Assembly: GCA_016699385.1 (NCBI GenBank)
Contig: CP064974.1
Location: forward strand, 692,654 to 756,653
DNA length: 64,000 nt
Direction of reading: 5' to 3'
Origin: Candidatus Moraniibacteriota bacterium
GTDB taxonomy: Bacteria > Patescibacteriota > Minisyncoccia > Moranbacterales > UBA1568
Under the pieces are notes generated by a model that had not been told where the DNA came from, did not search any database, and saw nothing but the letters and a program-made list of their open reading frames with translations. Positions within the stretch are counted from its first letter, which is position 1. Each line of letters begins with the position of its first letter. This document shows, piece by piece, positions 11,141 to 54,021 of the stretch. The translations under genes were made by a program, and so were the position numbers.

Positions 11141-12193
11141 TTATACCACAGTTTTGTCAAAAAATTTCAGATACAATCCATAACCCTTTGCTTCGAGTTC
11201 TTCTTTGGGGACGAACCTGAGCGCGGCGGAGTTCATGCAGTAGCGTTTGCCGCCCTTGTCTGCCGGACCGTCATCGAAAACATGTCCCAAATGTGAATTT
11301 CCTTTCTTTGATCGCACTTCCGTTCGCACTGAAGTCAGCTCCGTATCATCGTGAAGTGAAACTGCATCCGAATCAATCGGCTTCACAAATGAAGGCCAGC
11401 CCGTCCCGGAATCATATTTATCTTTCGAGAGAAACAATGGCTCGCCAGAAACCACATCGACATACAACCCCTCCGCTTTGTTGTTGCAGTATTCATTTTC
11501 AAACGGTCGTTCCGTTCCGGCGTTCTGCGTCACTTCATACTGAAGCGGAGAAAGCTTCGCACGCAATTCTTCTTTCGAAAGCTTCTCCAAGGAATCCTCA
11601 CTCGATGCAGATTCAAAAACCGCAGACATTCCGTCGTGATGCGCCGCGATAAACGCTTCGCGCCCAGAACCTGTTCGATACGCCTGATACCGAAGCGGAT
11701 TCTTCGCGGCATAGCCTTGGTGAAAATCTTCCGCTCGCCAAAATTTCACCCTCGGCACAATGAGAAGAGCAAGCGGTTTGTCATAGATTTTCTGCGCCTC
11801 CACATCTCGCACTACCCTCTCGGCAATATGTTTCTCCTCCTCGGTGTCGAAATAAATCGCCGGCGCATACTGCTCTCCACGATCAGCAAACAAGCCATTC
11901 GCATCCGTTGGGTCGCTATAGAAAATAATATGCTCTACCAAACTCCGATACGAAGTCTTCGTTGGGTCATACGTCACCTCAACCACTTCGCGATGTCCAC
12001 CCTTGGCATAATTCTCATACGTCGGATTCTCCGTCGTCCCGCCCGCATATCCCGACTCAACCTTCACGATGCCTGAGAGCTTCTCAAAATCCGCCTCCAC
12101 ACACCAAAAACACCCCCCAGCAAACATCGCCGTTTTGTATTCCGAAAGTTGTTTCACCTGCCGAGACAAAGAATCTTGCGAAGACTGCGTCAT
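11141..12193 (-). CDS. msrAB: Bifunctional methionine sulfoxide reductase MsrA-MsrB fusion
   Basis: N-terminal MsrA motif GGCFWCVEA and C-terminal MsrB motifs ([19 protein letters not shown]). Confidence 0.85.
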
Positions 12194-16614: not shown

Positions 16615-19539
16615 TCACAAATACTTCCCCGTCAAGCTGCGTTTGCATTTCTTGAGATCGGTAGGCGTCCCCGCAAAGACAATTTCACCGCCAGCAGCAC
16701 CCCCTTCGGGTCCCAGATCGATTACCCAGTCACTATGGCGGATCACTTCAGAATTATGCTCAACAACAAGCACGGTGTTTCCTTTATCGACAAGTGCGTC
16801 GAGGATAAGGAGGAGTCGACGAATGTCCTCGAAGTGGAGACCGATAGTCGGTTCATCGAGAATATACAGCGTCTTGCCAGTTGCCTTCCGCGCGAGCTCG
16901 GTCGCAAGCTTGATACGTTGTGCTTCGCCACCCGAAAGATTGGTCGCGCTCTGTCCCAAAACAAGATAGCCCAGCCCCACTTCATCAAGCGCACGGAGCT
17001 TTTCCTCGACTGCCGACTGGTCAAAGAAAAACGCGCGTGCCTCGGTCACCGTCATATCGAGCACCTCGGACACGTTCATACCGCGATACTCGATTGCAAG
17101 TGTCCGCTCATTGTAGCGTGTCCCACCACAGGTCTCGCACGGCACATACATATCCGGCAAGAGATACATTTCAATCTTCCGCATACCACTTCCCTGACAG
17201 ACTTCGCATCGCCCGCCACGCATATTGAAGCTGAAATGACTCGCCGAAAACCCTGCCTTCTCCGCTTCTGCCGTCGCGGCAAAAAGATCCCGAATCGGCG
17301 TCCATGCACCCGTATAGGTGACCGCGTTCGAGCGTGGCGTCCGCCCGATTGCTTCCTGGTTAACGACAATCGCCTTATCGATATGTTCCATACCGCGAAT
17401 CGCTCGGTGCTTCCCAATCGAAGCGCGAGCACCATGAAACTCTCTGAGGAGCGCTCTCCCGAGAATATCCGTAATAAGCGTCGACTTCCCCGACCCGGAC
17501 ACGCCGGATACGACAACGAATGTCTCAAGTGGAATATGCATGTCAACATTTTTGAGATTGTGTTCTGTTGCGCCGATCACTGAAAGCATTTTTTTGGATT
17601 TTCGGAAAGATTTCTTCGTCGATACACTGCGTCGACCGGAAAGATACGCACCCGTCTCCGTCTTGGATTGCCACAAAGCCTTTGGTGTCCCAGAGAACAG
17701 CACCTCCCCGCCCTCGCGCCCAGCGCCAGGTCCCATATCAACCACCCAATCCGCTGCATGCATAATTGCCGGGTCATGCTCCACGACCACCAAAGAATTG
17801 TCTTGTCCTTGAAGCGCACGAAGCGTATCAATGAGACGTTCCGTATCGCGGTTGTGAAGCCCGATTGACGGCTCATCGAGAATATAGAGTATACCGGACA
17901 ATTCCGACTTCATCTGTGTCGCGAGCTTGATACGCTGAGCTTCCCCACCCGAGAGTGTCTCGGCACTTCGAGAGAGTTCCAAATAGCCAAGTCCGACCTG
18001 CCGCACCGCACCGAGTCGCTCCGTCGCTTCCCGCAAAAGCGGCGCCGTCATCCGATTTCCCTTGGCAAGAGACGCTTCTGCCAAAAGACCCAGAAGGTAC
18101 TGCTCCAACTGATCGACCGGCATATCAGACAGCTGATCAATTGACTTCCCATCGAACAATACCGAAAGTGCCTCCGGACGCAAACGTTTCCCTTTGCATG
18201 ATGGGCACGGCGATGATGACATGAATTTCTCGATGCTCGAGCGGATATGATCAGACTTTGTCTCGCGATATTTTTTCTCGAGAATCGGAATTACCCCGGG
18301 GAAAAATGGTTTCTTCGAACGACGCTCGCCAGACTCGCCAAAGAGCACTTCATTGAAATCGGCTTTCTTGAGTTTCGATACTGGCACATCAAGCGCAATG
18401 TGTCGCCGCCCGGCAAATGCACGCAACAATTCAAAGCTCCCATTGCCAGACTCGCGCTTCCCGTTTCCATTGCCATGCCCGGCACTCTCGAGCGTACCCG
18501 CATCGTCGTCATCATCTTCGCATCCATTCGACGGCGACGCACACGGTGTCCGACTCCACGGACGAATCGCCCCCTCGAGAAACGAGAGTTTCTTGTTTGG
18601 AAGTACCAAATCCGCATCAAGCTCGAGCTTCTTCCCAAGACCGGCGCAGGCCTTGCAGGCACCCTCGGGATTATTGAACGAAAACGTATGCGGTGTGATA
18701 TCCGTGATGCCCGTGCCACATGATGCGCAGAGATATTCGCGACTATAGTGACGCTCCTCCGATCCATTCACCACCACCGTGAGCGTTCCATGCCCCAACT
18801 TAAACGCCGTTTCAATCGAATCAAGCACCCGCTCGACATCCGGACGCTTTGCATTGAGCGTTATGCGGTCGATCACAACATCCATCTCAGAAAGCAACAT
18901 ATCGGAAGCGTGTGGCGTCGCTTCGGATATGAGCATGATTTGATTATGAAAACGCACGCGCGCATAGCCCGCTTGGAGTAGTATTTGAAGCGCCTCTTTC
19001 TCTGTCTTCTTGCGCGTCTGTTCCATTTTGGTCAGAAACATCGTCCGCGTCCCATCGGGAAAGTCGAGAATCTCTCGCAAAATATCCTGCGACTCTCGTC
19101 GGTCAAGACGCTTCCCACACATGGGACAGTGCGGCGCACCCGCCTTGGCAAAGAGCACGCGAATATAGTCATACGCTTCCGTGAGCGTCCCCACTGTCGA
19201 TCGCGGCGAGCGCGTGATACTCTTCTGATCGATAGATATCGATGGACTCAGGTTGGAGATAAAGTCCACGTCCGGCCGATCAAGAGCCTCCATGAAATGC
19301 CGCGCATACGACGAGACCGACTCCATGTACCGACGATTCGCCTCCGCATGAATAGTATCGAAGGCAAGCGACGATTTCCCCGACCCCGACAACCCCGTAA
19401 TCACCACAAATTTCTCACGCGGAATATCCACGTCCACTCCTTTCAAATTGTTTACGCGCGCACCCCGAATCTCGATTACCGCGCGTTTGGACTTCTTCTT
19501 CACTCCCGAGTCGACTCGTGCCACAGCAGTTTTTGGCAT
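16615..19539 (-). CDS. uvrA: Excinuclease ABC subunit A (UvrA)
   Basis: Two ABC ATPase modules (GLSGSGKSSLAFDT, GVSGSGKSTLI), zinc-finger cysteines and LSGGEAQR signatures. Start set at MPKTAV ('cat' at 19537-19539). Confidence 0.9.
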   Translation of the reverse strand: MPKTAVARVDSGVKKKSKRAVIEIRGARVNNLKGVDVDIPREKFVVITGLSGSGKSSLAFDTIHAEANRRYMESVSSYARHFMEALDRPDVDFISNLSPSISIDQKSITRSPRSTVGTLTEAYDYIRVLFAKAGAPHCPMCGKRLDRRESQDILREILDFPDGTRTMFLTKMEQTRKKTEKEALQILLQAGYARVRFHNQIMLISEATPHASDMLLSEMDVVIDRITLNAKRPDVERVLDSIETAFKLGHGTLTVVVNGSEERHYSREYLCASCGTGITDITPHTFSFNNPEGACKACAGLGKKLELDADLVLPNKKLSFLEGAIRPWSRTPCASPSNGCEDDDDDAGTLESAGHGNGNGKRESGNGSFELLRAFAGRRHIALDVPVSKLKKADFNEVLFGESGERRSKKPFFPGVIPILEKKYRETKSDHIRSSIEKFMSSSPCPSCKGKRLRPEALSVLFDGKSIDQLSDMPVDQLEQYLLGLLAEASLAKGNRMTAPLLREATERLGAVRQVGLGYLELSRSAETLSGGEAQRIKLATQMKSELSGILYILDEPSIGLHNRDTERLIDTLRALQGQDNSLVVVEHDPAIMHAADWVVDMGPGAGREGGEVLFSGTPKALWQSKTETGAYLSGRRSVSTKKSFRKSKKMLSVIGATEHNLKNVDMHIPLETFVVVSGVSGSGKSTLITDILGRALLREFHGARASIGKHRAIRGMEHIDKAIVVNQEAIGRTPRSNAVTYTGAWTPIRDLFAATAEAEKAGFSASHFSFNMRGGRCEVCQGSGMRKIEMYLLPDMYVPCETCGGTRYNERTLAIEYRGMNVSEVLDMTVTEARAFFFDQSAVEEKLRALDEVGLGYLVLGQSATNLSGGEAQRIKLATELARKATGKTLYILDEPTIGLHFEDIRRLLLILDALVDKGNTVLVVEHNSEVIRHSDWVIDLGPEGGAAGGEIVFAGTPTDLKKCKRSLTGKYL

Positions 19540-19685
19540 AGCGGAACAGGTATAAAAAACGATGCATTGCCACCCATTGTACCGCAATTTTCCGCAATTG
19601 TCACTTTTGCGGGAGTATTCGCATTCCACCGGACACAAATCACCAACATCGTGGCAAAACACAGATTTGTGCGATATACTGTATC

Positions 19686-20438
19686 TTGAAAGCAAGTGTG
19701 CTCGATATCGAGCAGAGATTCCCTCTTTATTTCTCCATGTTTATGACATCACTCTTTAGCGATCTCACAGAAGAAGACAAATCCAAAGCAGTCAAAGATC
19801 TCATTCACGAGTCAATGCCGCGACCATCGTTTTTCCTCCTCATTGGACTCTCCGTACTCATGGCGACCTTCGGTCTCGCGCTCAACAACTCCGCCGTCGT
19901 CATCGGCAGTATGCTTATCGCACCCATTCTTTCTCCGATTCTCTCCCTCTCTCTCGGTATCGTCATGTCCGACAGCTCACTCCTCATGCGATCCGTCCGC
20001 ACACTCTTCCTCTCATCCGCGCTCGGCGTGGGACTCGCCGCTGTCTCAACACTCTTTCTCTCGAATCCCTTCGGCGCAGAAGTCATGAGTCGCACCCTCC
20101 CCTCGCTCATCTATTTCTCCATCGCATTCGTCGCCGGATTCGCCGTCGCCTTCGCTCGCGTCAATCCCACCATGAGCGACACCATCCCCGGTATCGCTGT
20201 CTCCGTCTCCCTCATTCCGCCACTTGCCGTCATCGGCATGGGAATCGCCCGACTCAACTGGGCTATCACAAGCGGCGCCTTTCTCCTCTTCCTCACCAAT
20301 ATCGTCGGCATTGTCTTCGCCACCATGATTGTCTTCTCTCTCATGAACTTCTACATCAAGCGCTCCGTCGCGACCGCCACCCTCCAAGAAGAAATACGTA
20401 CTCAACAACTCGAAACCAAAGAAAAAGACGAGGAATAG
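19686..20438 (+). CDS. DUF389-family integral membrane protein
   Basis: Multi-TM protein with a MLIAPILSPIL-type DUF389 signature. The start may be the internal ATG near 19737. Confidence 0.5.
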   Translation: MKASVLDIEQRFPLYFSMFMTSLFSDLTEEDKSKAVKDLIHESMPRPSFFLLIGLSVLMATFGLALNNSAVVIGSMLIAPILSPILSLSLGIVMSDSSLLMRSVRTLFLSSALGVGLAAVSTLFLSNPFGAEVMSRTLPSLIYFSIAFVAGFAVAFARVNPTMSDTIPGIAVSVSLIPPLAVIGMGIARLNWAITSGAFLLFLTNIVGIVFATMIVFSLMNFYIKRSVATATLQEEIRTQQLETKEKDEE

Positions 20439-20444
20439 CAGTCT

Positions 20445-20545
20445 CCCTATTTCCAAAGAAAAAACAGGGGGTAAAACAAACTATTTTTCCGAGAAATAGG
20501 AGGGGGCTTGGAAAGGACTGTGGATAGTCCTTTAAGCCGCCCTCT
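20445..20545. terminator. Nested GC-rich hairpins between convergent genes, ending in a T-run (candidate bidirectional terminator)
   Basis: CTCCCTATTTC...GAAATAGGAG 11-bp stem, AAGGACT...AGTCCTT stem, then GCCGCCCTCTTTTTG. Confidence 0.35.
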
Positions 20546-20565
20546 TTTTGTTTCCAAATTCCCGA

Positions 20566-20952
20566 CTATCTGAAAACAGATTTTGTCCTACCATTTTTGA
20601 GCACGTCGCCTTCAAACATACACAGACATTCGCAAGGTTTCTGCTTAAGAATAACTCTTTGTTCATCTAAGGTATCAATAAACACGCTCTGGCTACTAGA
20701 ACCAATAGCAAATTGCTTATTAAGCGGGGTGTGATGCTTGTATCCGCGACGATCAAATTCTTTTACAAGCGCTTCGTGTCTCAAGTAGAGTGCCTTTTCT
20801 TTGCCAACCCAGCGCAAAGTCTCCGGATGTCTAGAATATCCACCCTTGCCTTTATGCTTGGTCAGAATATTCCAAAGTCCATGGAGTTCTCTATGCTCCG
20901 CGAGCAAGTGCTTCCGACACAAATGTTTCGGATGTATATCCCATACACGCAT
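20566..20952 (-). CDS. Pyrimidine-dimer DNA glycosylase (T4 endonuclease V / DenV family)
   Basis: MRVWDIHPKHLCRKHLLAEHRELHGLWNIL matches the DenV N-terminal L.DQHLMAEYREL catalytic region. 128 aa. Confidence 0.65.
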   Translation of the reverse strand: MRVWDIHPKHLCRKHLLAEHRELHGLWNILTKHKGKGGYSRHPETLRWVGKEKALYLRHEALVKEFDRRGYKHHTPLNKQFAIGSSSQSVFIDTLDEQRVILKQKPCECLCMFEGDVLKNGRTKSVFR

Positions 20953-20956
20953 ACCA

Positions 20957-21724
20957 TTATTTCTTTGGAAACATTGGAATAAATACGCTCACCCTTCTCT
21001 TATATTCGGCAAATTCCTGGTTCTCAGCCATTTTTTTCTCAAGCATTGGAATGCCAGATACCTTCAAAATTAAAAAGGTAATCGTGATCGGTCCAACAAT
21101 ACCAAGCAAACCATTTGGAACAGAGAGGGCGATGAACCACAAACCCCACCACTGCGCTACTTCACCAAAATAATTCGGGTGGCGAGTGTATGCCCAAAGT
21201 CCTTTTTGCATCAACTTTCCCTTATTTTCTGGATTTTTAATAAATTGTGCCAACTGTGCATCACCCACGGATTCAAAATAAAATCCAAAAAGCCACACGG
21301 CAACACCAAGTATATCGAGTATACCTAGTGCTGTTCCCGCACTCTTGTTTATAAGCAATACCGGCAGAACAATGAGAAATAAAAGTAGACCTTGCAAAAG
21401 ATACACTTGCGCATACGAACGCAGGTAAAACCATGTGCCCCATTCTTTACGCCACGCAAGATACCGATAATCCTCCGCCTTACCCTTGTTTCGATTGTAA
21501 ATATGCCACGCGAGGCGCAATCCCCAAATACTTACCAATACGCCCACCAAGACTCCCTGTATTCCGAAATCACCCGAAAGGAAAAAGGATGTCCATGTCA
21601 TAAGCACAAACCCCAAGCCCCACGCTACATCAGCCACATCATTTCTCTTTTTGACGAGAGACACCACAAACCATAGGCTCATGTATACAAACAATACCAA
21701 AATGATGTTTAGGTAATAATTCAT
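20957..21724 (-). CDS. ICMT / steroid-5alpha-reductase-like membrane enzyme (DUF1295 family)
   Basis: Multi-TM protein with the C-terminal RHPNYFGE...EKKMAENQEFAEYKRRVSVFIP motif typical of the ICMT/PEMT/DUF1295 superfamily. Confidence 0.55.
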   Translation of the reverse strand: MNYYLNIILVLFVYMSLWFVVSLVKKRNDVADVAWGLGFVLMTWTSFFLSGDFGIQGVLVGVLVSIWGLRLAWHIYNRNKGKAEDYRYLAWRKEWGTWFYLRSYAQVYLLQGLLLFLIVLPVLLINKSAGTALGILDILGVAVWLFGFYFESVGDAQLAQFIKNPENKGKLMQKGLWAYTRHPNYFGEVAQWWGLWFIALSVPNGLLGIVGPITITFLILKVSGIPMLEKKMAENQEFAEYKRRVSVFIPMFPKK

Positions 21725-22119
21725 AAACCAGTTTTAATCGCGATGAAATAGGTTATGGTTGATACAGAAGCTGCAAGCACTGCCCCCCACACCAAATCCA
21801 CCATTGTCACCAGAAGTGGCCAATCTTTCGCAACTGCCAAATTCGTTAGGTCATAGGTAGCATAGCAAACTAAGCCAAACAAAGCGCCGAAAAGAAGCGC
21901 GTGAGTCCATGATCCTTTCTCAATCGCTGGTGTAATAATAAAAACTACAAGACCAACGATAAATAAGAGATAAAAAAGAATTGCCGCTGTCCAATTCACA
22001 TCTGGTTTCAAGAGCGAACCAATTTGTTTGGCATAAAATCCTTTGGCAACCACTCCAAGCCAAAGCATATCAATAGCAAGGAATACCGGTAATGCAATTG
22101 CGTATAGTTTTATAAACAT
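21721..22119 (-). CDS. DUF2177-like small membrane protein
   Basis: 132 aa with four TM helices. It overlaps the downstream gene start by 4 nt, indicating operonic coupling. Confidence 0.4.
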   Translation of the reverse strand: MFIKLYAIALPVFLAIDMLWLGVVAKGFYAKQIGSLLKPDVNWTAAILFYLLFIVGLVVFIITPAIEKGSWTHALLFGALFGLVCYATYDLTNLAVAKDWPLLVTMVDLVWGAVLAASVSTITYFIAIKTGL

Positions 22120-22132
22120 AAAATGTAAGAAA

Positions 22133-22771
22133 TTAGTTACTCATTTCCACCAACACTTCGTTGCGATTCATCCACGGTGGTGTCCATGGCGCATTGTATC
22201 CGGCGTATGAAGCGCCCTGTTGTACCACGACTCCGTCACGAGCAAGGAGTGAGAGTAATTTTTCTTGCATACTTTTTATTCTCGCATCCGACCGATACCA
22301 AGAAAACTTCATCACCGCGTATTTCTTTTCTGGAATCATTACGATCTTAACTCTCGAATCATTTGGTGTCGGCAGTGTTTCTAGGGTATACGAGCGTGGC
22401 ATACCAAAAGATATCGTCTGCGAGTCTCCCTCCCCCGTCACCATAACGGGCGCGGTCATAGCGATGTTTTCCGAAACATTCTTCACTCCTTCTTTTTGTG
22501 CTACCACCGGCGCGGTCATGGCAATGCTTTCTTTCTTGGCATTCCCGCCAAAAATATATCCCGCCACAATTCTAAAACCATTAGCCATCGATTCTCCATA
22601 GGAACCACGCACTGTCGTCTGAGCGACAATATGCGCCGGATATTGTCGCACTTCATAACCACTCATCTTCTTCACCACCGTATAGTCGGCCTGTTCGACA
22701 CGAGAACCAAAAAATCCCCAAATAGACCAGAGCACGACAATGACGACCAGAGCGATGAGGACACTATTCAT
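22133..22771 (-). CDS. SOUL/HBP-family heme-binding protein
   Basis: N-terminal TM anchor followed by a SOUL fold pattern (YPAHIVAQTTVRG...GFRIVAGYIFGGN...IAMTAPV). Confidence 0.6.
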   Translation of the reverse strand: MNSVLIALVVIVVLWSIWGFFGSRVEQADYTVVKKMSGYEVRQYPAHIVAQTTVRGSYGESMANGFRIVAGYIFGGNAKKESIAMTAPVVAQKEGVKNVSENIAMTAPVMVTGEGDSQTISFGMPRSYTLETLPTPNDSRVKIVMIPEKKYAVMKFSWYRSDARIKSMQEKLLSLLARDGVVVQQGASYAGYNAPWTPPWMNRNEVLVEMSN

Positions 22772-22775
22772 AATT

Positions 22776-23180
22776 CTATTTATTGAGATACGTTATAGTT
22801 AATTGTAAACAAGTGGCAAAGGTGCCCCAGAGAAGATACGGGATGTTGACATAGACTACCCAACGGAGTTCAGGTACATTGTGCCAAACTGTATAGAATG
22901 CCCAGATAAGGGTACCAACAACGAACAAGATATCCACTGCCGCTAGTAGGTTATTTTTGAGTCCGAATTGAATTGGCGTGAAAGCAAAATTAAAAAGTAA
23001 ATTGAGTGCAAAAGGCAAAGCCACAACCCAAGGAATCTGCTTGGTGAACACCCTATAAAAAACAGTGCCAAAGGAGACGGCAATAATCGCATACAAAACT
23101 GTCCACACTGGTCCAAAGAGCCAGCTCGGCGGAGCCCATGTTGGTTTTATTAATTGTGAATACCAGTTGTATGTATTCAT
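22776..23180 (-). CDS. tspO: TspO/MBR tryptophan-rich sensory protein
   Basis: WYSQLIKPTWAPPSWLFGPVWTVLY is the canonical TspO N-terminal signature. Five TM helices, 134 aa. Confidence 0.85.
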   Translation of the reverse strand: MNTYNWYSQLIKPTWAPPSWLFGPVWTVLYAIIAVSFGTVFYRVFTKQIPWVVALPFALNLLFNFAFTPIQFGLKNNLLAAVDILFVVGTLIWAFYTVWHNVPELRWVVYVNIPYLLWGTFATCLQLTITYLNK

Positions 23181-23452
23181 AGAGTTATTATTTTAATAGT
23201 CTACTTATGCAACCAGGTAGGTGTCTTTCTCTCATGCGACAGAAAAGATACACCCACTAAAGACTAAGAAGCCGGAAAAGAAGATGAAGATGGGGCTCCA
23301 TGTGATCGCGATACCCCAAAGAAGCAATGCCATTCCGATGATGAGTAAAATTATGCGCCCGTCCGTCACTCTCCTCATCGCGCACACAATCCATTACCAG
23401 TGTACTCGAAATTGCCAAAGAAAGCATCCACTCCACTATTCATCGTTCGTTT

Positions 23453-23968
23453 TCACTGAGAGGAATTCATAGATCGCTTCACTGCAGCTTCAAGTTCTTC
23501 GGGAACATCCGTTCCTATGCGATAGACTTTTCCATTTTTCAGAGTTATCTCAACCGCATCAAAACCCGAAACATTGTATATCCACATTTTGGGCCACAGC
23601 CACAATCGTATTCCCCATCCATAATACCAACGATTCTTTACCGATCTGACTGAAGCTATCTGATCCAGCGCAAACTTCTTGGAAAAAATTCCGCAACCAA
23701 ATTTGATCCGAAGAAAATTTTCATCAATCAAGACTGTTAGCGTGACAAACGATGCAAGCACAAACAGAATAAACACCATTACAGCAGAAATGGCGAAATT
23801 TGGACCAGAGTCAACTGAAGGAGGCTCAGCCAAAGCCGAAATATAAACCCTCACAAAGAGCCCCAGCACGGCCAACAGAACAACCAACATCAGATATCCA
23901 ATTTGCGTGTGTTTGTATGGAGTCATAGATTTTGATTCCAACCGGTGATGGAGATTTCTCAATACCAC
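23453..23968 (-). CDS. Hypothetical membrane protein
   Basis: Two TM helices plus a C-terminal soluble domain. No motif recognised. Confidence 0.3.
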   Translation of the reverse strand: MVLRNLHHRLESKSMTPYKHTQIGYLMLVVLLAVLGLFVRVYISALAEPPSVDSGPNFAISAVMVFILFVLASFVTLTVLIDENFLRIKFGCGIFSKKFALDQIASVRSVKNRWYYGWGIRLWLWPKMWIYNVSGFDAVEITLKNGKVYRIGTDVPEELEAAVKRSMNSSQ

Positions 23969-24232
23969 AGGCTTGATACAGAAAGAGTAAGATGAAATAA
24001 GAGCGAACTTGCTTAATGTTCAATTGAAAGATTTAACAACATTTTTTCATTACATTCTCGCTTTCACATATCCACAGCGAGCTTGTCTCACACCATAGCC
24101 ACACACTTCAGGGTAGTGCGCATAACAGTGTTTCTCTCTGGATAAATTAAATCTTTAAAGGTTTTTGCATTTGAGTAACGAAAAATAATATTTCGAGCGA
24201 CTTCTGGCGACCCGTTTCCACGCCAACAAGAT

Positions 24233-24436
24233 CTATGATCCCGTCCATTCTTCCTCGCATTCAGCACAACGGTTATTTCCAGTATGCTCAAACATGTCGG
24301 TAAAGCCGTTTGGCTGATACATCCTCTCCTTATCACTCCAAAAAAACTCGTCATCAATAAGTGTTTCAACGAACTTGCGCTCTGCCCCACAATGTTGGCA
24401 CGCATGTTTTGGGTATTTTTTTGTTTCACTCTTCAT
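24233..24436 (-). CDS. Small zinc-ribbon protein (CxxC...CxxC)
   Basis: 67 aa with CQHCG and CAEC pairs. It starts 27 nt after the stop of the DpnI-like gene on the same strand. Confidence 0.3.
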   Translation of the reverse strand: MKSETKKYPKHACQHCGAERKFVETLIDDEFFWSDKERMYQPNGFTDMFEHTGNNRCAECEEEWTGS

Positions 24437-24462
24437 GCCCAGATCTTTGATCGAATCTATTC

Positions 24463-25230
24463 TTATGTCAAGCGATATTTTCCATCCCCCACAAACTCGA
24501 GATACCCCTTATCCCGTAAAAATTGTAACTGCTGTCTTACTTTTGGCTTAATATTCTTGTTTTCAGGGTGAATTACAGATAAATCACTCTCAAAAGCATA
24601 CACTTCTTGCAATGTAAATTCTTTTTTATTAATTGAATCAACGCAATTCATAATATCCAAAATCCAACCCTTAGCATCAGTTTTTTTAACTTTTTTCAGA
24701 AATACGGTCTTTTGCCATTTTTCCAAAACATCTTTTTTGGCAAGCTCTTTCCCGTTTTCGATATAGAAAATTTGTCCTGCTTTTGGTATTTTAGAGAATA
24801 AAATATTTGAACCAATCCAACCAGCTCGCCTTGCGTTTTCTGCTAGAGGTTTTCGTTTTTCGATAATTTCAGAAACAAAAAAATGCTTTGGAATAACAAA
24901 AAAATCATTAACGCTTAACATCTCCAAAAGATAGTTCATGAAAAAGAAATTTGGTTTTCCATTGGAGTTAATCCTCTCTACCATTTTTGAGTAAGCGCCT
25001 GCAGATACCTTTTTTCCAAACTTTCTCTGTTTTGATTTAAGTTCAAAGTCTTCCATGCATTTCACACAATAAAAATCAGCAACAGGCCTGTTATTTTGAT
25101 ATTCAAAAATTGATTCGCCGCAACTTGGACAATAAATTTCTCGCAAAACCCAGCCCTCACTCAAAACTCGGATTTTTTGAGAGGAGCTGGTATAGTTCGC
25201 TATTAAATTTTCATCAAAAGTCAGCTTCAT
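24463..25230 (-). CDS. dpnC: DpnI-like type IIM methyl-directed restriction endonuclease (cuts Gm6ATC)
   Basis: 255 aa, co-linear with S. pneumoniae DpnI: SSQKIRVLSEGWVLREIYCPSCG...NNRPVADFYCVKCMEDFELKSKQ...RKPLAENARRAGWIGSNI...QQLQFLRDKGYLEFVGDGKYRLT. This gives an N-terminal PD-(D/E)XK catalytic domain and a C-terminal winged helix. Confidence 0.85.
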   Translation of the reverse strand: MKLTFDENLIANYTSSSQKIRVLSEGWVLREIYCPSCGESIFEYQNNRPVADFYCVKCMEDFELKSKQRKFGKKVSAGAYSKMVERINSNGKPNFFFMNYLLEMLSVNDFFVIPKHFFVSEIIEKRKPLAENARRAGWIGSNILFSKIPKAGQIFYIENGKELAKKDVLEKWQKTVFLKKVKKTDAKGWILDIMNCVDSINKKEFTLQEVYAFESDLSVIHPENKNIKPKVRQQLQFLRDKGYLEFVGDGKYRLT

Positions 25231-25247
25231 GTGTTTCCAAATTTTAG

Positions 25248-25460
25248 CTACTGTCCGATATTTTCGGACACTTCAGAGTAGCCCTCTTTTATAAGTTTTT
25301 TCTTGAGGTCGCTCCAATATTTTCGGGGGCGCGCGGTATCTGTTAAAACCTCGATAACATCAATTATAGAAAACCACCATTCATTTTTATAAAGAATCTT
25401 TCGAACTTCCTTTTTCTGAAATATCACTATCTTGGTACTTGTTTGATTTTGCGTGGTCAT
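25248..25460 (-). CDS. Bro-N / DinD-like N-terminal domain small protein
   Basis: KIVIFQKKEVRKILYKNEWWFSIIDVIEVL fits the Bro-N pattern (F.F..vR....e.wF...Dv...L). It is translationally coupled to the HTH gene by a 4-nt overlap. Confidence 0.35.
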   Translation of the reverse strand: MTTQNQTSTKIVIFQKKEVRKILYKNEWWFSIIDVIEVLTDTARPRKYWSDLKKKLIKEGYSEVSENIGQ

Positions 25461-25462
25461 AA

Positions 25463-25669
25463 TTATTTCAAAAGTTCGTTAATCGGAACACCTAGAGCCT
25501 TGGCCAGATTCGCAATAGTCGAAAGCGTCGGATTTGTCTTCCCATTCTCAATGTTGCTAATAAAAGATTTATCAACAGCGAGTTGTCTGGCAATCTCGGT
25601 CTGAGTAGTATTTTTCCTTGTTCTGATTTCCTTGAGATTTTCTCCAAGCTTTTTCGAGTAGTCTTCCAT
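25463..25669 (-). CDS. XRE-family HTH transcriptional regulator (controller-protein-like)
   Basis: 68 aa containing QTEIARQLAVDKSFISNIENGKTNPTLSTIANLAKALGV, the classic Cro/C1 HTH. Confidence 0.8.
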   Translation of the reverse strand: MEDYSKKLGENLKEIRTRKNTTQTEIARQLAVDKSFISNIENGKTNPTLSTIANLAKALGVPINELLK

Positions 25670-25687
25670 AAAAAGAATATATCACAC

Positions 25688-25709
25688 TTGTTGTATTTTA
25701 CTACAACAA
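25688..25709. promoter_or_regulatory. Inverted repeat TTGTTGTA-N6-TACAACAA upstream of the HTH gene (candidate operator)
   Basis: A perfect 8-bp arm inverted repeat lies 19-40 bp upstream of the HTH start codon. This geometry is typical of C-protein or XRE autoregulatory operators. Confidence 0.35.
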
Positions 25710-26076
25710 TATAACTTTTTGCAAATACAATTTGGGAGCAAGAAAAGGCCGGAAAACGGGCTCACTATTATGCAATAAAGTTCGAGATTCAGAGGTTTTC
25801 AAAAATGCAAAAGTTCTTTCTGGGGACGAAAGAAGAGGTCAGTATCCCAGGTATCGATATTCAAGGGTATGCCAAGTACCTTCTCCGAAGAGGAACAAAC
25901 GAGGAGAAGCGAGAAATACTCGGTTGTTTAAAAAGTCGGATCTATCCCACTCAGAAGAAGATTACTCTAGAAAGGTAACCAAAGATCAAGGCAAGTAAAA
26001 AGCACGGAAATCCCGTGCTTTTTACTTTGTAACCGACCAATATTGCAGGTAAGCATCTCATGCTACCTGCTGACTG

Positions 26077-26163
26077 CGGAGAGGCAGGGATTCGAACCCT
26101 GGAAGGGGTTTCCCCCTTAACACATTAGCAGTGTGCTGCTTTCAGCCGCTCAGCCACCTCTCC
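26077..26163 (-). tRNA. tRNA-Ser (anticodon GCT), type II with long variable arm
   Basis: GGAGAGG acceptor, 3-bp D stem, anticodon stem GCACA/TGTGT with loop CTGCTAA, variable arm GGGGG/CCCCT, T arm CAGGG TTCGAAT CCCTG, discriminator G. Confidence 0.8.
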
Positions 26164-41105: not shown

Positions 41106-41504
41106 TTATGAAGATGCAAGAGCTTGACGTACTCGCTTTACCATATCAGGAAGTGCAATATTCGATTTCACGATATAATCAAGCGCGCCAAGCTCTTTGG
41201 CGTGCGCAATATCTTTTCCCTGACTCAAGTTCGACATCACAATCACACGAATATCTGACAGAGCCGCATCCGCACGAAAGTCAGCAAGCACCTGAAAGCC
41301 GTCCTTGAGTGGGATCATGATATCAAGAAGCACAAGATCCGGCTTCCGTTCATGAGCCTTTCGAATCGCTTCTTCACCATCTCGCGCAAGGTCAACCTCA
41401 AATCCCTCAAGGACTAGCTTTCTCTCGTAAACATCCGAGATGAACTCATCATCTTCGACAATGAGTATATATTTCATAGATTGCTGCACATTCTTATTGT
41501 TCAT
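41106..41504 (-). CDS. Stand-alone response regulator receiver domain (CheY-like)
   Basis: DD acidic pocket, phospho-acceptor D in LVLLDIMIP, conserved T/S and K. No output domain. Confidence 0.85.
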   Translation of the reverse strand: MNNKNVQQSMKYILIVEDDEFISDVYERKLVLEGFEVDLARDGEEAIRKAHERKPDLVLLDIMIPLKDGFQVLADFRADAALSDIRVIVMSNLSQGKDIAHAKELGALDYIVKSNIALPDMVKRVRQALASS

Positions 41505-41522
41505 AGGAAAACTAGCAAAATA

Positions 41523-43217
41523 TTATTTTTTAGCAAGTGGAAGCTCAACAAGAAAAGTTGTTCCTTTTCCCTCTTTACTTTCAAATGAAACGCGACCACC
41601 CATCTCTTCAACAAAATTCTTTACTACAGCAAGTCCCAATCCTGATCCTTCGGTCTTCCAACGAAGCGCATTCGAGGCTCGGAAGAATTTCCCAAATATT
41701 TTCTCGCGCTCTGATTTCGGAATGCCGATACCCGTATCGGAAACCGAGAAGACAATCTTGTCTTCTGTAGTTGTATCCAGATGAATCGTAACTGTTGATC
41801 CCGAAGGGCTGTATTTCACGGCATTATGGATGAGATTTTCACACACTTCATGAAGACGCCGTGGGAACGACAGCACTTTCCAACTATTCGATTTTTTCGA
41901 TGGAGCAAAGTCGATATGCACGCCGGATTTCTCAGCGAGCGATTGCAATTCCCCAAGAACCGTCGATATTGTCTCGACAACACCAACCGCTTCGGATGAT
42001 TCAGGATCCTGCCCCGCATCAAGCAGTGCAACATTCAAAAGATCATTGATAAGTCCGATCATACGAAGCGTATTCGCGTGTATCTTTTTCACAGTTTCCG
42101 TGGCTTCCGGAGAAATCTCTCCAACATCACCACCAAGCAGCATCTCCATATTCCATCGCATTCCCGAAAGCGGTGTCCGAAGCTGATGCGCTGCAACAGA
42201 GAGGAAGCGGTCTTTGGCGTTATCCATCGCGCGTTCTTCCGTCATATCCTTGAAAACAATCATGCATCCAAGCAACCGATTGTCGTCGGAGTGAATCGGA
42301 TTGATAGAGTACGAAATTGGCAATGTCTCCAAACCCTTACGAACCAACAAACCGCGAGTGTCCTCCAGAGAAGACTTCTTCGTAATTATCTGCTCGAGAA
42401 AATCTATCGGGACATTCGGACGTTTCTCAGTTGCAAGCGAAAAGAAATCCTGACATCGGTTCCCCAATACAGACTGAGATTTGACATCATACTCCGGAAT
42501 ACCGAGAATACTCCCCGCCGCCTCATTGAGAAAGAGGATATTCCCACCAAGATCAACAGCTATAACGCCATCACCAATAGATTGCAAGAAGCGAAGAACC
42601 GAATCACGCTCTTCTTTCTCTCGACCAAGTGATTCATTCGCAACTTTCAAATCCTCCGATTGAGCCACCAGTTGCTTTTCATACTGACGCCGTTTGGTAA
42701 TATCTCGTTCAACACCAACAAAGAAACGAACGTCTCCTTGTTCATCGAGAAGTGGAGAAACGCCGATTTCTGCTATGTACTGCTCGCCTGACTTCCGCCT
42801 ATTCGTCACCTCACCCGAAAATCGTTTTTTCTGTTCCTTGATAGTCTTCCAAAAATTCTTGTAGAAATCAATTCCCATTTGACCTCCCCACAACGCCGGA
42901 GTTTTCCCGAGTATTTCATCAATCGAGAAGCCCGTAATATGTTCGACTGCTGGGTTGGCATAAAGTACAGTACCATCCGGATCAGTGATGACCATATGGT
43001 CAAAACTCCCTTCCGCCGCCATACGGAATTTCTTCAATTCATCAGCCTGATCTCGAAGCTGACCCTCAAGAATACGTGCATCATCAAGTACGTTGAGTAT
43101 CGCTTTCTCCGTATCCTCGAGCTGATGAACTTTCTTCTCAAGATCACGCACATACTCTGCCGAAACAGGCGTGCTTTCCAAATCCAATACCCCTTGTGAT
43201 TTCGTAGCGTGTGGCAT
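41523..43217 (-). CDS. Cytoplasmic PAS-domain sensor histidine kinase
   Basis: Two or three PAS-like segments, HisKA H-box (LSVAAHQLRTPLSGM) and HATPase_c N, G1 and G2 boxes (NLIHNAVKYS, DTGIGI, GSGLGLA). No TM helix. Confidence 0.85.
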   Translation of the reverse strand: MPHATKSQGVLDLESTPVSAEYVRDLEKKVHQLEDTEKAILNVLDDARILEGQLRDQADELKKFRMAAEGSFDHMVITDPDGTVLYANPAVEHITGFSIDEILGKTPALWGGQMGIDFYKNFWKTIKEQKKRFSGEVTNRRKSGEQYIAEIGVSPLLDEQGDVRFFVGVERDITKRRQYEKQLVAQSEDLKVANESLGREKEERDSVLRFLQSIGDGVIAVDLGGNILFLNEAAGSILGIPEYDVKSQSVLGNRCQDFFSLATEKRPNVPIDFLEQIITKKSSLEDTRGLLVRKGLETLPISYSINPIHSDDNRLLGCMIVFKDMTEERAMDNAKDRFLSVAAHQLRTPLSGMRWNMEMLLGGDVGEISPEATETVKKIHANTLRMIGLINDLLNVALLDAGQDPESSEAVGVVETISTVLGELQSLAEKSGVHIDFAPSKKSNSWKVLSFPRRLHEVCENLIHNAVKYSPSGSTVTIHLDTTTEDKIVFSVSDTGIGIPKSEREKIFGKFFRASNALRWKTEGSGLGLAVVKNFVEEMGGRVSFESKEGKGTTFLVELPLAKK

Positions 43218-43231
43218 AGAAAAAATTTCGA

Positions 43232-44782
43232 TCAGTTATGTTTCTTGTCGATGAGTTTTCGACACTCGCCTATTTCCTTCTTGAGTTCGATCATGCGAAG
43301 CTCTCGACTCACCATGATAGCATTCAAACGCTCGGTCTCTTTTCGCTTCTGCACCTCTGCCTCCTCTAGCTCTTTCCGTTCAGTTATATCGACCGCCGTA
43401 TGGAGAAATCCCAAGAAGACACCGGATGAATTCGAAAATGGAACGCTATTGTCGAGCATCCATCGATACTGATTCTTCGCCAGCGAAACACGATATTCCA
43501 TCCGAAGAGGCTTCCGATTCTCAAATGCAGAGACGCACTGCGCGCGATATCCAGGCTCGTCATCAGGATGAATACTCTTCTGCCACACCTCCGTGAAATG
43601 TTCTTTCGAAGTCTCTCCGATGAGCAACAAGGTTTGTTTGTTTACATAGAGACACTTCCGTTCCCTATCAATCATCCAGAGAAACGCCGGCATGGTATCC
43701 GCAATCGTTTGAAACCGACGCTCAGCGAGATCACCTCGCTCACGCACCTGCAAGAGCGATCGAAGCATCGCATTAATCTCTTCGGCGAGTTTTGCAATCT
43801 CATCGCTCCCAGAGAATTCTATACCCGATTTCGACACTCCTCTCTCTCTTGCATGAGCGAGCGAGCGGCTCAGATAGTTCACACGAGAAAGTACTGCCCA
43901 ATGAAGTAAGAAAAAAATAAGTAATGTTGAGACCAAGAAAAAGCCAATCAAAGAAAGTACGACAATTATCTTTGATACACCAAATGCTGTGGGTATCGCC
44001 CGTTCAATCTTATAAAACAGCAGCGGACTCCCAAATACATCCGCAACGAATCCGTAGCCAGAAATAGTTGCCTCTCCAACAAAAGTCTTAGGTTTATTGG
44101 AAGATGTGAGTTGACCCGCAATATTCGCAAAATCCGATGGAAAACTCTTTGATCCATACAACTCGAATGAAACAGGGTATCCGAGAAAATTGGATATTCC
44201 ATAGCGATATGAGTCATCAATCATCTTCACAAACGCCAATGTCCCGCGAGATGGTCCCTCTCCATGCGACGTCATAATCGGTCGCGTCGCGATAAATGCA
44301 AGTCCTGATGAAAGTTGAATAATCCCCGAATGCACCTCTGTATTGGAATCAAATGTCGAAAGGAGAGAACCCGGTTTAAGTTGATCTTCAACATCATCAG
44401 GAACGGGAATCTGTTCCCGAGTCTTCATGTCCACTCCCTGTCGCGCAAGCACCGTCCCGTCCCGCTTGGCGATAACGATGAAGTTCACACCAAGAACATC
44501 AAGGGAGTCCGTTGGAAGATTCGACTTGACAAACTCTTCCGTTGGCGCACCTGCAAACGAATACATATCATCCCATTGCGACCAATCAAGAAGCTGATGA
44601 TCCAGAGTCCGCATATCTCTCGCAATCACCCGACCCGTCCACTCAACATTCTCTTGAACAGCATGCTGTTCATTCTCAACAAGTCGCCCCAAGAAGAAAA
44701 TGCCAAGCCACGCATAGAGAGCAATCAAGACACCTTCCAATGCATATGCCACAATGAAAAATATTTTCTTTTGCAGAGTCAT
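43232..44782 (-). CDS. Membrane-anchored sensor protein with a periplasmic domain and a C-terminal PAS domain (no kinase domain)
   Basis: N-terminal TM, extracytoplasmic domain of about 250 aa, second TM, then a PAS domain (FQTIADTMPAFLWMIDRERKCLYVN...RMEYRVSLAKNQYRWM) and a coiled coil. Confidence 0.5.
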   Translation of the reverse strand: MTLQKKIFFIVAYALEGVLIALYAWLGIFFLGRLVENEQHAVQENVEWTGRVIARDMRTLDHQLLDWSQWDDMYSFAGAPTEEFVKSNLPTDSLDVLGVNFIVIAKRDGTVLARQGVDMKTREQIPVPDDVEDQLKPGSLLSTFDSNTEVHSGIIQLSSGLAFIATRPIMTSHGEGPSRGTLAFVKMIDDSYRYGISNFLGYPVSFELYGSKSFPSDFANIAGQLTSSNKPKTFVGEATISGYGFVADVFGSPLLFYKIERAIPTAFGVSKIIVVLSLIGFFLVSTLLIFFLLHWAVLSRVNYLSRSLAHARERGVSKSGIEFSGSDEIAKLAEEINAMLRSLLQVRERGDLAERRFQTIADTMPAFLWMIDRERKCLYVNKQTLLLIGETSKEHFTEVWQKSIHPDDEPGYRAQCVSAFENRKPLRMEYRVSLAKNQYRWMLDNSVPFSNSSGVFLGFLHTAVDITERKELEEAEVQKRKETERLNAIMVSRELRMIELKKEIGECRKLIDKKHN

Positions 44783-54000: not shown

Positions 54001-54021
54001 GAAAGACATCTCATTTCTCAA
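48034..54021 (-). CDS. Giant (1995 aa) membrane-anchored surface protein: LamG-like domains, about 17 tandem Kelch-like beta-propeller repeats, multiple FN3/Ig-like C-terminal domains
   Basis: N-terminal TM. LamG motifs (ALYHFDE...TIEAW and WHHVAATYNGSTMSLYVDG). A 48-aa repeat LY.GLG...GDAEVW.WDGS.W..IGGD..NS.W. FN3-like segments in the C-terminal 700 aa. Confidence 0.7.
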   Translation of the reverse strand: MRNEMSFQLRDILVVWYMQKYKTFYSRLLFWGVSLGRLVAWSIRLLWSLKPRYVVFSVLSASVVAGAFLFFSGRIHNIFADGEITETWDFATSGDYVASSGVTVDGANTESHLSVKNYTSDSDTVALYHFDESNGTTATDSSANANNATVSGGSFASGNLNNALSFNGTTAFASAPDSAANSLSQANTIEAWTKFSSAFSVGSHPQRQGIVDKGDYQLYFDNETGKLTYELANASASGWTQQAGNDINGSWDLNGNPTIESSNVLGGNLYVGTGNGTGDAEVWKWDGTRWTQIGGDGLNNCWAINTFEAVYVMANDGTNLYVGLGLTAGDAEVWKWDGSTWSKIGGDALNSSWQINTFEAVNSLTFVGGYLYAGLGNSANDAEVWRWDGSTWTKIGGDSLNSGWTTNYEGVYSLTNDGTNVYAGLGLTAGDSEVWKWSGSSWTKIGGDGLNSSWDATYEYVYSMTYFGGNLYVGLGLTAGDAEVWKWNGSTWSKIGGDTVNSSWDSSSYEMVYSLVNDGTTLYAGLGSTAGDNEVWSFNGSTWTKIGGDGVNGSFTNTHTIVSTLAVDGSTLYAGISTSSSTVSAQEWSWNGSSWTLIGGDYVNFSWGFRGLRSVEVLNVTGDYLYAGTGVATIGNAMVWQFDGTTWTLVGGQGVNGSWDANTYETVTSLIGHEGELYVGLGSSANDAEVWHWDGSTWEQIGGDSLNSGWTTNFEEVNSLASYGGFLYAGLGNSANDAEVWRWDGSTWTKVGGDSLNSGWTTNFERVTALGVHAGKIYAGLGSSAGDAEVWECTNCEGTPVWSRVGGDGVNSSWANSTYEQVDSLIVYAGFLYVGLGTSTDDAEVWKYDGSSWIQIGGDDVGGSWSSGTYERVRTLAVYNGALYAGLGTTAGDGEVWRYVGSSWSQVGGDNVNGSWGSTIEEVGAFSAYKGKFYAGTGNTANADAAVWSFGNNAFLQSATSSFDTNWHHVAATYNGSTMSLYVDGTLNNSRSISMSISDSSSDILIGTTYAGREYGKPEGFFQGSLDELRISSVARTSFQSTPYSSGYETVTLASAVHTSGVKKWDAFVTDEESPGTLTYRLSDNGGSTWQYWNGSAWATSSGYAQSNDASTISTNISTFPAGSGGLLWQAIFLGDGNELVQLNSVDLTATADIVAPAWGGTPTLSAKDSDGGSTDLTTGTWYSYTAPYFEWSPATDTGGSGVSGYFVYFGTSASAEPTTQGHFQVGNSYVATVDTDGNALVSGQKYYLIVKAKDIAQNTSVVFPVAFSYWLDSTAPTNPLGVTAAPAVYSPDADFSFLWSAGTDGNGNPATNSMIAGYQYQIAAVVASDGWSTTTTALQVDITGAAYQTGENFFYLRTIDVAGNVSSGNVRTSFYYAGSGPTAPQNVQAIPATNTANSFAFIWDPPFSFSGDASDLTYCYTVNAVPSEDTCSFTLPGVESVAASSFATQKGTNTFYVVAKNPEDLGGVINYGAYETAEFVANTSAPGIPLSMDIADVSVKNTESWKLAVSWEAPSDIGSGVDSYQIYHSLSEGGTYTKVASTSGIAFVDTGLTQVVHYYKIRACDSVNNCGAFSEIVSAYPTGKYTEAAGLASGPLVSLITTKSATIGWSTDRTSDSKVQYGKGSGSYYSEEPSNSEQVTDHEIKLSNLSPGTTYHYRARWTDEDGNTGLSGEKSFKTDPAPTVVDPNLKSAGLTSAILEFTAKGASKVKIYYGLTEAFGLVKEVATSTSETTYTTSLEDLLDGTKYYYKINTVDSEEEEYEGSTLSFETLPRPKIEEVRIQQVKGTAQTVLLISWKTNTETSSIVTYSPEGRDGDAKDEVDAKMVTGEHRILLRDLLPQTPYSLIVKGRDNFGNEAKSTALQFTTATDTRAPQIIDANVEGLIVKSADGSQGEPEAQLVVTWTTDESATAQVEYGEGTGSVYPQKTQEDASLVSNHTVVISKLTPSKVYHLRVLSKDKAGNIGESIDIVSIAPKATQNALDIVFSSLKSIFGQ
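50760..53210 (-). repeat. Tandem coding repeats (about 144-bp units, about 17 copies) encoding Kelch-like blades
   Basis: Periodic nucleotide and amino-acid repetition (GGDSLNSGWTTNFE.V.SL...G.LYAGLGSSANDAEVW.WDGSTW). It produces many spurious repeat-derived ORFs in other frames. Confidence 0.6.

Follow-up and report, generated by a model that had tools for sequence, protein, structure and literature searches.

A 64,000-nucleotide stretch of the genome of Candidatus Moraniibacteriota bacterium (contig CP064974.1, positions 692,654 to 756,653; hereafter the window) carries a cluster of five genes encoding a TspO protein, a SOUL heme-binding-family protein, a DUF2177 membrane protein, a DUF1295 protein and a T4-endonuclease-V-like (DenV-like) protein of the Pfam family Pyr_excise. 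When the cluster was compared with loci from other genomes, it emerged as the full set of a mosaic cassette, probably for stress defence, that many Patescibacteria, also called the candidate phyla radiation (CPR), carry. With moderate confidence, we regard the cassette as the CPR variant of a known (photo-)oxidative-stress cluster, in which a T4-endonuclease-V-like enzyme replaces photolyase. We favour this interpretation because the same membrane families cluster with photolyase outside the CPR and because induction by light or singlet oxygen has been published for such families.

The five-gene cluster and its recurrence in Patescibacteria

According to the open reading frame (ORF) list and the sequence of the window, all five ORFs are co-oriented on the minus strand between 23180 and 20566 (Table 1). 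Read from tspO to the denV-like gene, the intergenic gaps are 4, 13, -4 and 4 nt, the negative value being a 4-nt ATGA overlap of the DUF2177 stop and the DUF1295 start. A first-pass annotation, made from the sequence alone, had described five tightly packed genes with spacings of -4 to +13 nt. This description was borne out, as the ORFs lie exactly where it placed them and their five Pfam matches are all far over the gathering cut-offs. An NCBIfam scan of the same ORFs added nothing above threshold.

Table 1 Features of the cassette and its neighbourhood in the window
Feature	Position	Strand	Description
tspO, first gene of the cluster	22776..23180	-	ORF 23180-22776, 134 aa; Pfam TspO_MBR PF03073 8.6e-27
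SOUL heme-binding-family gene, second	22133..22771	-	ORF of 212 aa; Pfam PF04832 1.6e-47
DUF2177 membrane protein gene, third	21721..22119	-	ORF of 132 aa; Pfam PF09945 9.6e-47
DUF1295 gene, fourth	20957..21724	-	ORF of 255 aa; Pfam PF06966 8.1e-76
DenV-like (T4-endonuclease-V-like, Pyr_excise) gene, last	20566..20952	-	ORF of 128 aa; Pfam PF03013 4.5e-25
GC-rich stem-loop after the last gene	20500..20544	-	probable transcript end
272-nt spacer upstream of tspO	23181..23452	-	presumed promoter region
171-aa membrane protein gene	23453..23968	-	family unassigned, possible accessory gene; faint bPH_4 match only
Response regulator, PAS-PAS histidine kinase and CHASE4-PAS protein in a row	41106-44782	-	

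Signals for transcription were also analyzed. A consensus promoter and terminator scan returned no more sites inside the cluster than in shuffled sequence. The stem-loop is located in the 127-nt spacer 3' of the denV-like gene, between convergent genes, and the fold of 20440-20570 (-45.4 kcal/mol, z -3.9) was equalled in stability by none of 200 shuffles. The 272-nt leader showed no significant RNA structure (z -0.16), and no Rfam family, riboswitch or other known RNA, was matched in or around the cluster. This layout fits one transcription unit, with an mRNA that would probably begin in the spacer before tspO and end at the hairpin past the denV-like gene.

The nearest relatives of the DenV-like and TspO proteins, and of a long TspO-like protein (see below), are almost all from Patescibacteria/CPR metagenome-assembled genomes (MAGs). 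For the analysis of gene neighbourhoods, 80 loci were anchored on the denV-like gene using one genome per species, and 77 of them had enough upstream sequence. Neighbours were called from naive ORFs with phmmer and with hidden Markov models built from the matches; as these models were built from CPR sequences only, the counts are probably underestimates. In 34 of the 77 loci, the denV-like gene was directly preceded on its own strand by a member of a cassette family or of the long TspO-like family (TspO 24, DUF2177 5, DUF1295 2, long TspO-like 2 and SOUL 1). The 24 TspO-to-DenV-like gaps were only 1-15 nt, and at least one of these families was found within 8 kb of the denV-like gene in 47/77 loci. 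When all neighbours were clustered all-against-all, no other real family appeared in more than 9 of the 80 loci (GIY-YIG 9, MsrA 7, MsrB 5). The grouping with the denV-like gene is far beyond chance.

Individual loci illustrate the mosaic. The exact 128-aa protein was found again on independent metagenome contigs, and one of these, L091, has the identical five-gene set. Shorter or interrupted runs, each on one strand, are TspO-Pyr_excise (L001), TspO-SOUL-DUF2177-Pyr_excise (L004), DUF2177-DUF1295-Pyr_excise (L095) and TspO-Flavodoxin_2-SOUL-TMEM175-DUF2177-DUF1295-x-Pyr_excise (L006). A further case, in a Magasanikbacteria MAG (L033, 4047-8688), is a nine-gene same-strand run of a homologue of the window's 171-aa protein, MsrB, MsrA, SOUL, TspO-like, DUF2177, DUF1295, DenV and ASCH.

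A reverse scan anchored on close TspO relatives in metagenomes (80 loci) gave the same partners. The sole recurrent neighbours were DUF2177 (19/80), SOUL (11), DUF1295 (9) and DenV-like (8-12), and about 45 TspO genes had no partner nearby. The usual order is TspO, SOUL, DUF2177 and DUF1295 with the DenV-like gene last; exceptions are SOUL before TspO in L099 and L100, and TspO after DenV in L090. AT-rich extended -10-like boxes were seen by eye upstream of the cassettes in several loci. The five families are each other's preferred neighbours amid otherwise non-syntenic flanks. The first-pass annotation had proposed a functional link and co-transcription, and had reasoned that the link would be weak if the genes were together only in this genome and RNA-seq showed the operon to be split by a promoter or terminator. 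The linkage is instead recurrent, mostly collinear and spread over many CPR lineages, which backs the functional link, and co-transcription is very probable.

Parallels with light- and singlet-oxygen-induced clusters

Loci outside the CPR were found by tblastn of the DUF2177 protein against plasmids, and the annotated regions were then compared. On a plasmid of Brucella anthropi (NZ_CP008818.1), genes for photolyase and DUF1295 are divergent from genes for an FAD-oxidoreductase, DUF1365, cyclopropane fatty acid (CFA) synthase, DUF2147, DUF2177 and TspO/MBR, and this block adjoins genes for a ChrR anti-sigma factor and an extracytoplasmic function (ECF) sigma factor. Listeria monocytogenes has photolyase, DUF2177, DegV and DUF1295 on one strand, and in Mesorhizobium DUF2177 and DUF1295 were found with ChrR and CFA synthase. 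Outside the CPR, the protein that best matches the DUF2177 of the window (53 % identity) is from Acetoanaerobium noterae, where an unannotated region (L181, 5890-9004) encodes on one strand DUF2177, a 591-aa gene at the position of the Listeria DegV, and DUF1295.

Experiments and surveys have been published for several of these families. The products of the Rhodobacter sigmaE-ChrR operon make furan fatty acids (PMC7380195). In Mycobacterium kansasii, phrB-tspO-mmpL2 is induced approximately 30-fold by light (PMC9861118), and the two most light-induced genes of Aspergillus fumigatus encode TspO and photolyase (PMC3604765). In STRING, an association of TspO and PhrB is recorded for Pseudomonas and Rhodobacter (PMC4237140). 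The SAK1-dependent singlet-oxygen genes of Chlamydomonas include SOUL1/2, DUF2177, DUF1295, DUF1365 and CFA synthases (PMC4067076). DUF2177, DUF1295 and DegV are over-represented in the neighbourhoods of heliorhodopsins, where SOUL and photolyase are found as well (bioRxiv 10.1101/2021.02.16.431466).

One close parallel is with the sigmaE-ChrR clusters (the Brucella anthropi plasmid and Rhodobacter sphaeroides RSP1091-1087 with phrA). Like them, the window cluster joins TspO/MBR, DUF2177 and DUF1295 to a pyrimidine-dimer repair-type gene, and both would shield membrane and DNA against photo-oxidative damage. However, those clusters have photolyase, a full-length TspO and no SOUL, whereas the window has a Pyr_excise protein in the photolyase position, a short TspO and a SOUL protein. 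Genes for ChrR, an ECF sigma factor, CFA synthase, a UfaD-like oxidoreductase and DUF1365 (UfaO) occur there, whereas among the window ORFs scanned neither a ChrR/ECF sigma pair or light regulator nor such fatty-acid-modifying genes were found. The M. kansasii locus likewise is a small cluster with a TspO gene directly beside a pyrimidine-dimer repair gene, but it has photolyase instead of a glycosylase, lacks SOUL, DUF2177 and DUF1295, and includes an extra MmpL transporter. In the Listeria cluster DUF2177 and DUF1295 stand on one strand with a UV-repair gene, and the same pair is enriched beside heliorhodopsins, also in Patescibacteria; there DegV lies between the pair, which overlaps in the window, and the Listeria cluster is without TspO, SOUL and glycosylase. 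In the SAK1 regulon of Chlamydomonas reinhardtii, SOUL1/2, DUF2177 and DUF1295 are co-induced by singlet oxygen, but this is a dispersed eukaryotic regulon rather than an operon, with no TspO or glycosylase listed and with CFA synthases and DUF1365 included.

Two claims of the first-pass annotation are affected by these comparisons. The proposed theme of light or photo-oxidative damage gains from the Brucella, Listeria, M. kansasii and Chlamydomonas parallels, while its strict UV form is weakened by the names of MAGs that point to aphotic groundwater (see below). The cluster had also been thought not to be a described operon type. Linkage of TspO (and of DUF2177/DUF1295) with photolyase has in fact been described, and only the DenV-type substitution is apparently undescribed; in the literature searched, no paper combined 'pyrimidine dimer glycosylase' with 'TspO'.

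The proteins of the cassette

The DenV-like protein is a clear member of its family (PF03013, 88.3 bits against a cut-off of 23; profile positions 1-79 of 81). When it was aligned by hhalign with T4 endonuclease V, whose sequence had been checked against 2END, an E-value of 2.4e-4 was obtained, with E22 on the catalytic Glu23 and R21 on Arg22. Among 122 divergent representatives of the family, E22 is kept in 114, the start is nearly always MR[IV]WD, and H20, H24, H42-P43-E44 and R47-W48 are, like E22, nearly invariant. M1 falls on T4 Thr2 and R2 on Arg3 only by offset, as the hhalign alignment itself starts at residue 10. The fixed N-terminus appears consistent with the N-terminal amine chemistry of endonuclease V. 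An AF2 model (pLDDT 74) had 2END as its top and only meaningful PDB fold match (probability 0.92, TM 0.53/0.50), although the match is weak by Foldseek (E 0.35). A direct PDB sequence search with the protein gave no match, and in a PDB profile search spurious interleukin-4 matches ranked over T4 endonuclease V (E 0.75).

The protein resembles T4 endonuclease V (PDB 2END, 1VAS) in its family, the aligned Arg-Glu pair, an N-terminus putatively at the equivalent position and its predicted fold, but it differs in several respects. T4 endonuclease V has 138 aa and a processed Thr2, whereas typical CPR members have 113 aa and a Met-Arg start, and a pairwise search misses the T4 enzyme. Arg26, Trp128, Tyr129 and Tyr131 of the T4 enzyme are implicated in dimer binding. 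The equivalent of Arg26 (position 25) is Gly or Ala in the DenV-like family, and typical members end near residue 113 with KPCECLL, without the C-terminal aromatic segment (WYKYY in T4). The window protein has a 15-aa C-terminal tail that is absent from the homologues of about 113 aa. Specificity for cyclobutane pyrimidine dimers (CPD), which the first-pass annotation had expected of the 128-aa protein, is at most putative, as both Arg26 and the aromatic segment are missing. In addition, C12, H15, C107 and C109 co-vary (CHCC in 55 representatives, replaced together in others), which suggests a putative metal site that T4 endonuclease V does not have. DenV-like homologues are 75-89 % identical across the CPR.

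Some more distant relatives of the DenV-like protein were also observed. A Pyr_excise protein 41 % identical to that of the window (P0165) is encoded on a 22-kb contig of JGI sample 3300056388, directly after a heliorhodopsin gene and an Epimerase/NmrA/DUF2867 gene and on the same strand. Other relatives are fused to a DUF1722, 2-thiouracil desulfurase (PF04463), methyltransferase or AIR-carboxylase (AIRC) domain (P0139, P0171, P0179, P0257, P0182 and P0172). DUF1722 is the domain found in E. coli YbgA, whose gene lies immediately before phr. Both the heliorhodopsin neighbour and the DUF1722 fusions tie the DenV-like family to light-related genes. The genomic contexts of a Haladaptatus homologue and of P0236, P0190 and P0171 were uninformative.

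The TspO of the window (PF03073, 94 bits against a cut-off of 24) covers profile positions 20-144 of 145. Its residue 5 corresponds to residue 29 in Rhodobacter TspO, 32 in mouse TSPO and 58 in the Bacillus cereus TspO construct, and alignments to 4RYI, 8E7X and 2MGY show that WY..L.KP.W.PP and PYLLW..FAT are kept. The 134-aa protein therefore has four predicted helices instead of five and lacks the first transmembrane helix (TM1). TspO homologues beside denV-like genes are mostly 131-134 aa, with the same N-terminus and the WY..L.KP.W.PP motif at residues 5-7. We conclude that TM1 is missing family-wide because the match begins late, in-frame stops lie upstream and the homologues share the short N-terminus. 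Restoration of TM1 by read-through or frameshift was considered and rejected, as there are three in-frame stops upstream and the short N-terminus is conserved. Supply of TM1 in trans from a 51-codon hydrophobic ORF (23387-23232), itself of doubtful reality, was also rejected, as it is not conserved; a small hydrophobic ORF was found upstream in only 18 of 95 short-TspO loci, and those sequences are unrelated. We know of no earlier description of a four-helix TspO family, and such a protein may behave unlike the characterised TspOs.

TspO has been described as a protoporphyrin IX oxygenase, with activity for the Bacillus cereus, Xenopus tropicalis and human proteins (PMC12002307), and has been proposed to guard against reactive oxygen species (ROS) from free porphyrins (PMC8243069). 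Its function is disputed. The four-helix form challenges the assumed need for five helices.

In 9 loci, the place of TspO ahead of a denV-like or DUF2177 gene is taken by a long TspO-like membrane protein of 253 aa (for example L033 6064-6828, L020 6992-7753 and L007 5244-5996). It had no Pfam match in our own scan, carries the NCBI name 'tryptophan-rich sensory protein', and has weak precomputed PF03073 matches in some members. Profile-profile comparison of the long form with TspO was weak (E 0.04).

The closeness of the TspO and DenV-like genes bears on what the latter protein does. One alternative is that it is not primarily a DNA-repair glycosylase here, and that the endonuclease V fold has been recruited to a TspO-linked role, for example with another substrate or in physical partnership with a membrane protein. 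The unusually tight TspO pairing (1-15 nt in 24 loci), the long TspO-like family in the same slot, identities that are very high for the CPR, the probable C12-H15-C107-C109 metal site and the relatives fused to non-repair domains (DUF1722, 2-thiouracil desulfurase, methyltransferase, AIRC) would agree with recruitment. However, Pfam membership is clear, the catalytic Glu and the fixed N-terminus are nearly invariant, about half of the CPR members have no TspO neighbour, and positive evidence for another substrate was not found. We consider recruitment of this kind improbable.

It is also conceivable, though we think it rather unlikely, that the TM1-less TspO and the DenV-like protein form a dedicated CPR-wide two-gene unit whose job is other than UV repair. 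Equally tentative is the proposal that such a unit couples the handling of tetrapyrroles or oxidants at the membrane to the excision of sensitised or oxidative DNA lesions. If true, the endonuclease V fold would have a new range of substrates, perhaps with zinc dependence, and a TspO would work with four helices. The organisms concerned would be without tetrapyrrole synthesis and would often inhabit dark places.

The remaining three proteins are well assigned to their families. The SOUL protein scores 162 bits against a cut-off of 27, so that heme binding is predicted by family. Its N-terminus MNSVLIALVVIVVLWSIWGFFGS is a hydrophobic helix (membrane anchor or signal peptide), and a duplicated IAMTAPV motif within the protein is visible as DNA repeat D1. 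The DUF2177 protein (159 bits) is over its threshold as well, and the overlap of its gene with the DUF1295 gene was seen again in other loci. The DUF1295 protein (255 bits, over threshold) has weaker Steroid_dh (1.5e-9), PEMT and ICMT matches, and its sole PDB sequence match is human SRD5A2 (7BW1, E 0.017). UsgR, a fungal DUF1295-like protein, is an ene-reductase (PMC8597850). By these similarities, the DUF1295 protein is likely to be an SRD5A-like ene-reductase or a methyltransferase. DUF2177, DUF1295 and bacterial SOUL proteins have no established bacterial function, and the cassette gives them a clean, testable context.

Proposed role, alternatives and genomic surroundings

What the analysis establishes directly is which genes are present, how tightly they are packed, that their linkage is conserved, to which families they belong and that catalytic-type residues are conserved; from there we infer co-transcription, the inducing stress and every biochemical activity of the cassette. 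In the proposed mechanism, a membrane arm of TM1-less TspO and membrane-anchored SOUL would bind free tetrapyrroles, which act as photosensitisers and pro-oxidants and would be taken from hosts or the environment. TspO may in addition degrade them oxidatively, and the translationally coupled DUF2177-DUF1295 pair would remodel oxidation-prone membrane lipids. In a DNA arm, the DNA-repair slot would be filled by a light-independent glycosylase/AP (apurinic/apyrimidinic) lyase of the T4 endonuclease V type, with the DenV-like enzyme excising UV dimers, sensitised base damage or both via its N-terminal amine and Glu22.

Several observations weigh against this interpretation. The linkage is facultative, as about half of the denV-like genes and more than half of the close TspO genes have no partner. 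No operator-like motif shared between the regions upstream of cassettes was seen by eye. No photolyase, ChrR, ECF sigma factor or photoreceptor was found among the window ORFs scanned. To these are added the weak Foldseek match to 2END, the Gly or Ala at the Arg26 position, the missing aromatic segment and the four-helix TspO. Finally, many carriers come from MAGs such as those named DeMMO2, nzgw, FW305, CG10 and Hainich H41, which we read as aphotic groundwater or deep mine. Among the same window ORFs there was also no CFA synthase, UfaD-like oxidoreductase, DUF1365 or heme-synthesis gene; ChrR, ECF sigma or light regulators, CFA synthase, UfaD and DUF1365 were likewise not among the recurrent neighbours in the 160 CPR loci.

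The main rival is a light-independent defence against oxidative or tetrapyrrole (heme) toxicity, for which UV is irrelevant. The cell would be a fermentative, monoderm episymbiont, and the cassette would protect it against free heme or porphyrin and against ROS at oxic interfaces or on hosts: TspO and SOUL would sequester or degrade tetrapyrroles, DUF2177 and DUF1295 would repair lipids, and the DenV-like protein would be mainly an AP lyase or oxidised-base glycosylase. The cassette or the TspO-DenV pair is indeed present in MAGs named as dark aquifers or deep mine (L026 FW305, L038 CG10, L040 DeMMO2). Methionine sulfoxide reductases are the next most frequent neighbours, stand in the same run in L033 and are encoded as a fused MsrA-MsrB in the window. 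The DUF2177-DegV-DUF1295 trio of Acetoanaerobium noterae belongs to a sludge-digester isolate that we take to be a strict anaerobe, and the DenV-like protein is without the CPD-binding segment of T4 endonuclease V. The proposed protection by TspO against ROS from free porphyrins (PMC8243069) points the same way. On the other hand, wherever homologous families were studied by experiment the inducer was light or singlet oxygen, the partner in other phyla is photolyase, which is useful in light only, and a DenV-like relative is linked to heliorhodopsin. The habitat labels of the MAGs are also crude, as they were taken from names alone. We consider a light-independent role possible, and it stays a serious rival to the photo-oxidative interpretation because the names of several carriers point to dark groundwater.

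The composition of the window was examined for signs of mobility. The cassette is located in a low-GC block (20500-26163) in which GC is 0.34-0.44 within 20.5-25.5 kb, compared with 0.51-0.54 on both flanks. This block also holds a DpnI-family endonuclease gene (24463-25230) and an XRE helix-turn-helix gene (25463-25669), and its boundary is tRNA-Ser(GCU) (26076-26163). The block is possibly an island that was acquired, although no convincing att-like direct repeats were found to bound it. The five module proteins are 75-90 % identical between CPR MAGs of different candidate phyla while their flanks differ, which fits either horizontal spread or very strong constraint. Horizontal spread is plausible because a low-GC block lies beside tRNA-Ser and the module proteins are unusually similar across the CPR.

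The genes could then be without any functional coupling and co-travel as a mobile block or by an accident of compact genomes. For this, one can cite the low-GC block with its DpnI gene and tRNA-Ser boundary, and the high identity of the module over nominally distant CPR groups amid non-syntenic flanks. However, the genes are gained and lost individually, and yet the same five families re-associate, usually in the same order and strand and with 1-15 nt spacing. Associations of these families are also found in unrelated phyla, and in an alga their expression is regulated jointly. As the mosaic is put together again and again, pure hitch-hiking is unlikely; mobility accounts for its spread and not for its re-assembly. 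This explanation was already disfavoured, and we regard it as very improbable.

Other genes of the window were analyzed as well. The 171-aa membrane protein upstream of the cassette matched no Pfam or NCBIfam family; in L020 and L033 it has homologues close to the cassette, one of which heads the nine-gene run of L033. The fused MsrA-MsrB gene (11141-12193, minus strand) is located 8 kb downstream of the cassette, and MsrA and MsrB recur near denV-like genes elsewhere in the CPR. A uvrA gene (16615-19695, minus strand) lies within 9 kb downstream. We concluded that it is not part of the module, because a plus-strand gene lies between and UvrA is not a recurrent neighbour of the cassette. The histidine kinase with PAS domains (41523-43217) was considered as a light-oxygen-voltage (LOV) photoreceptor and rejected, as it has no LOV cysteine motif. 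A giant surface protein is probably encoded by an ORF of 1995 aa (48034-54021, minus strand), in which fibronectin-III, laminin-G-like and purple-acid-phosphatase N-terminal domains were identified. The remaining window fits a CPR genome, with type IV pilus genes, large surface proteins, RecG, BipA, tmRNA and few metabolic genes.

The cassette repeatedly joins poorly understood families to a DNA-repair enzyme in minimal genomes that presumably lack tetrapyrrole synthesis. This suggests that protection from (photo-)oxidative damage is something in which CPR bacteria invest, and that a light-independent glycosylase can displace photolyase in an ancient gene partnership. Direct tests are possible for the conserved pair of TspO and DenV-like proteins, for the four-helix TspO and for the orphan pair of lipid enzymes. 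If the cassette works in the dark, it would redirect thinking on TspO-linked clusters in general.

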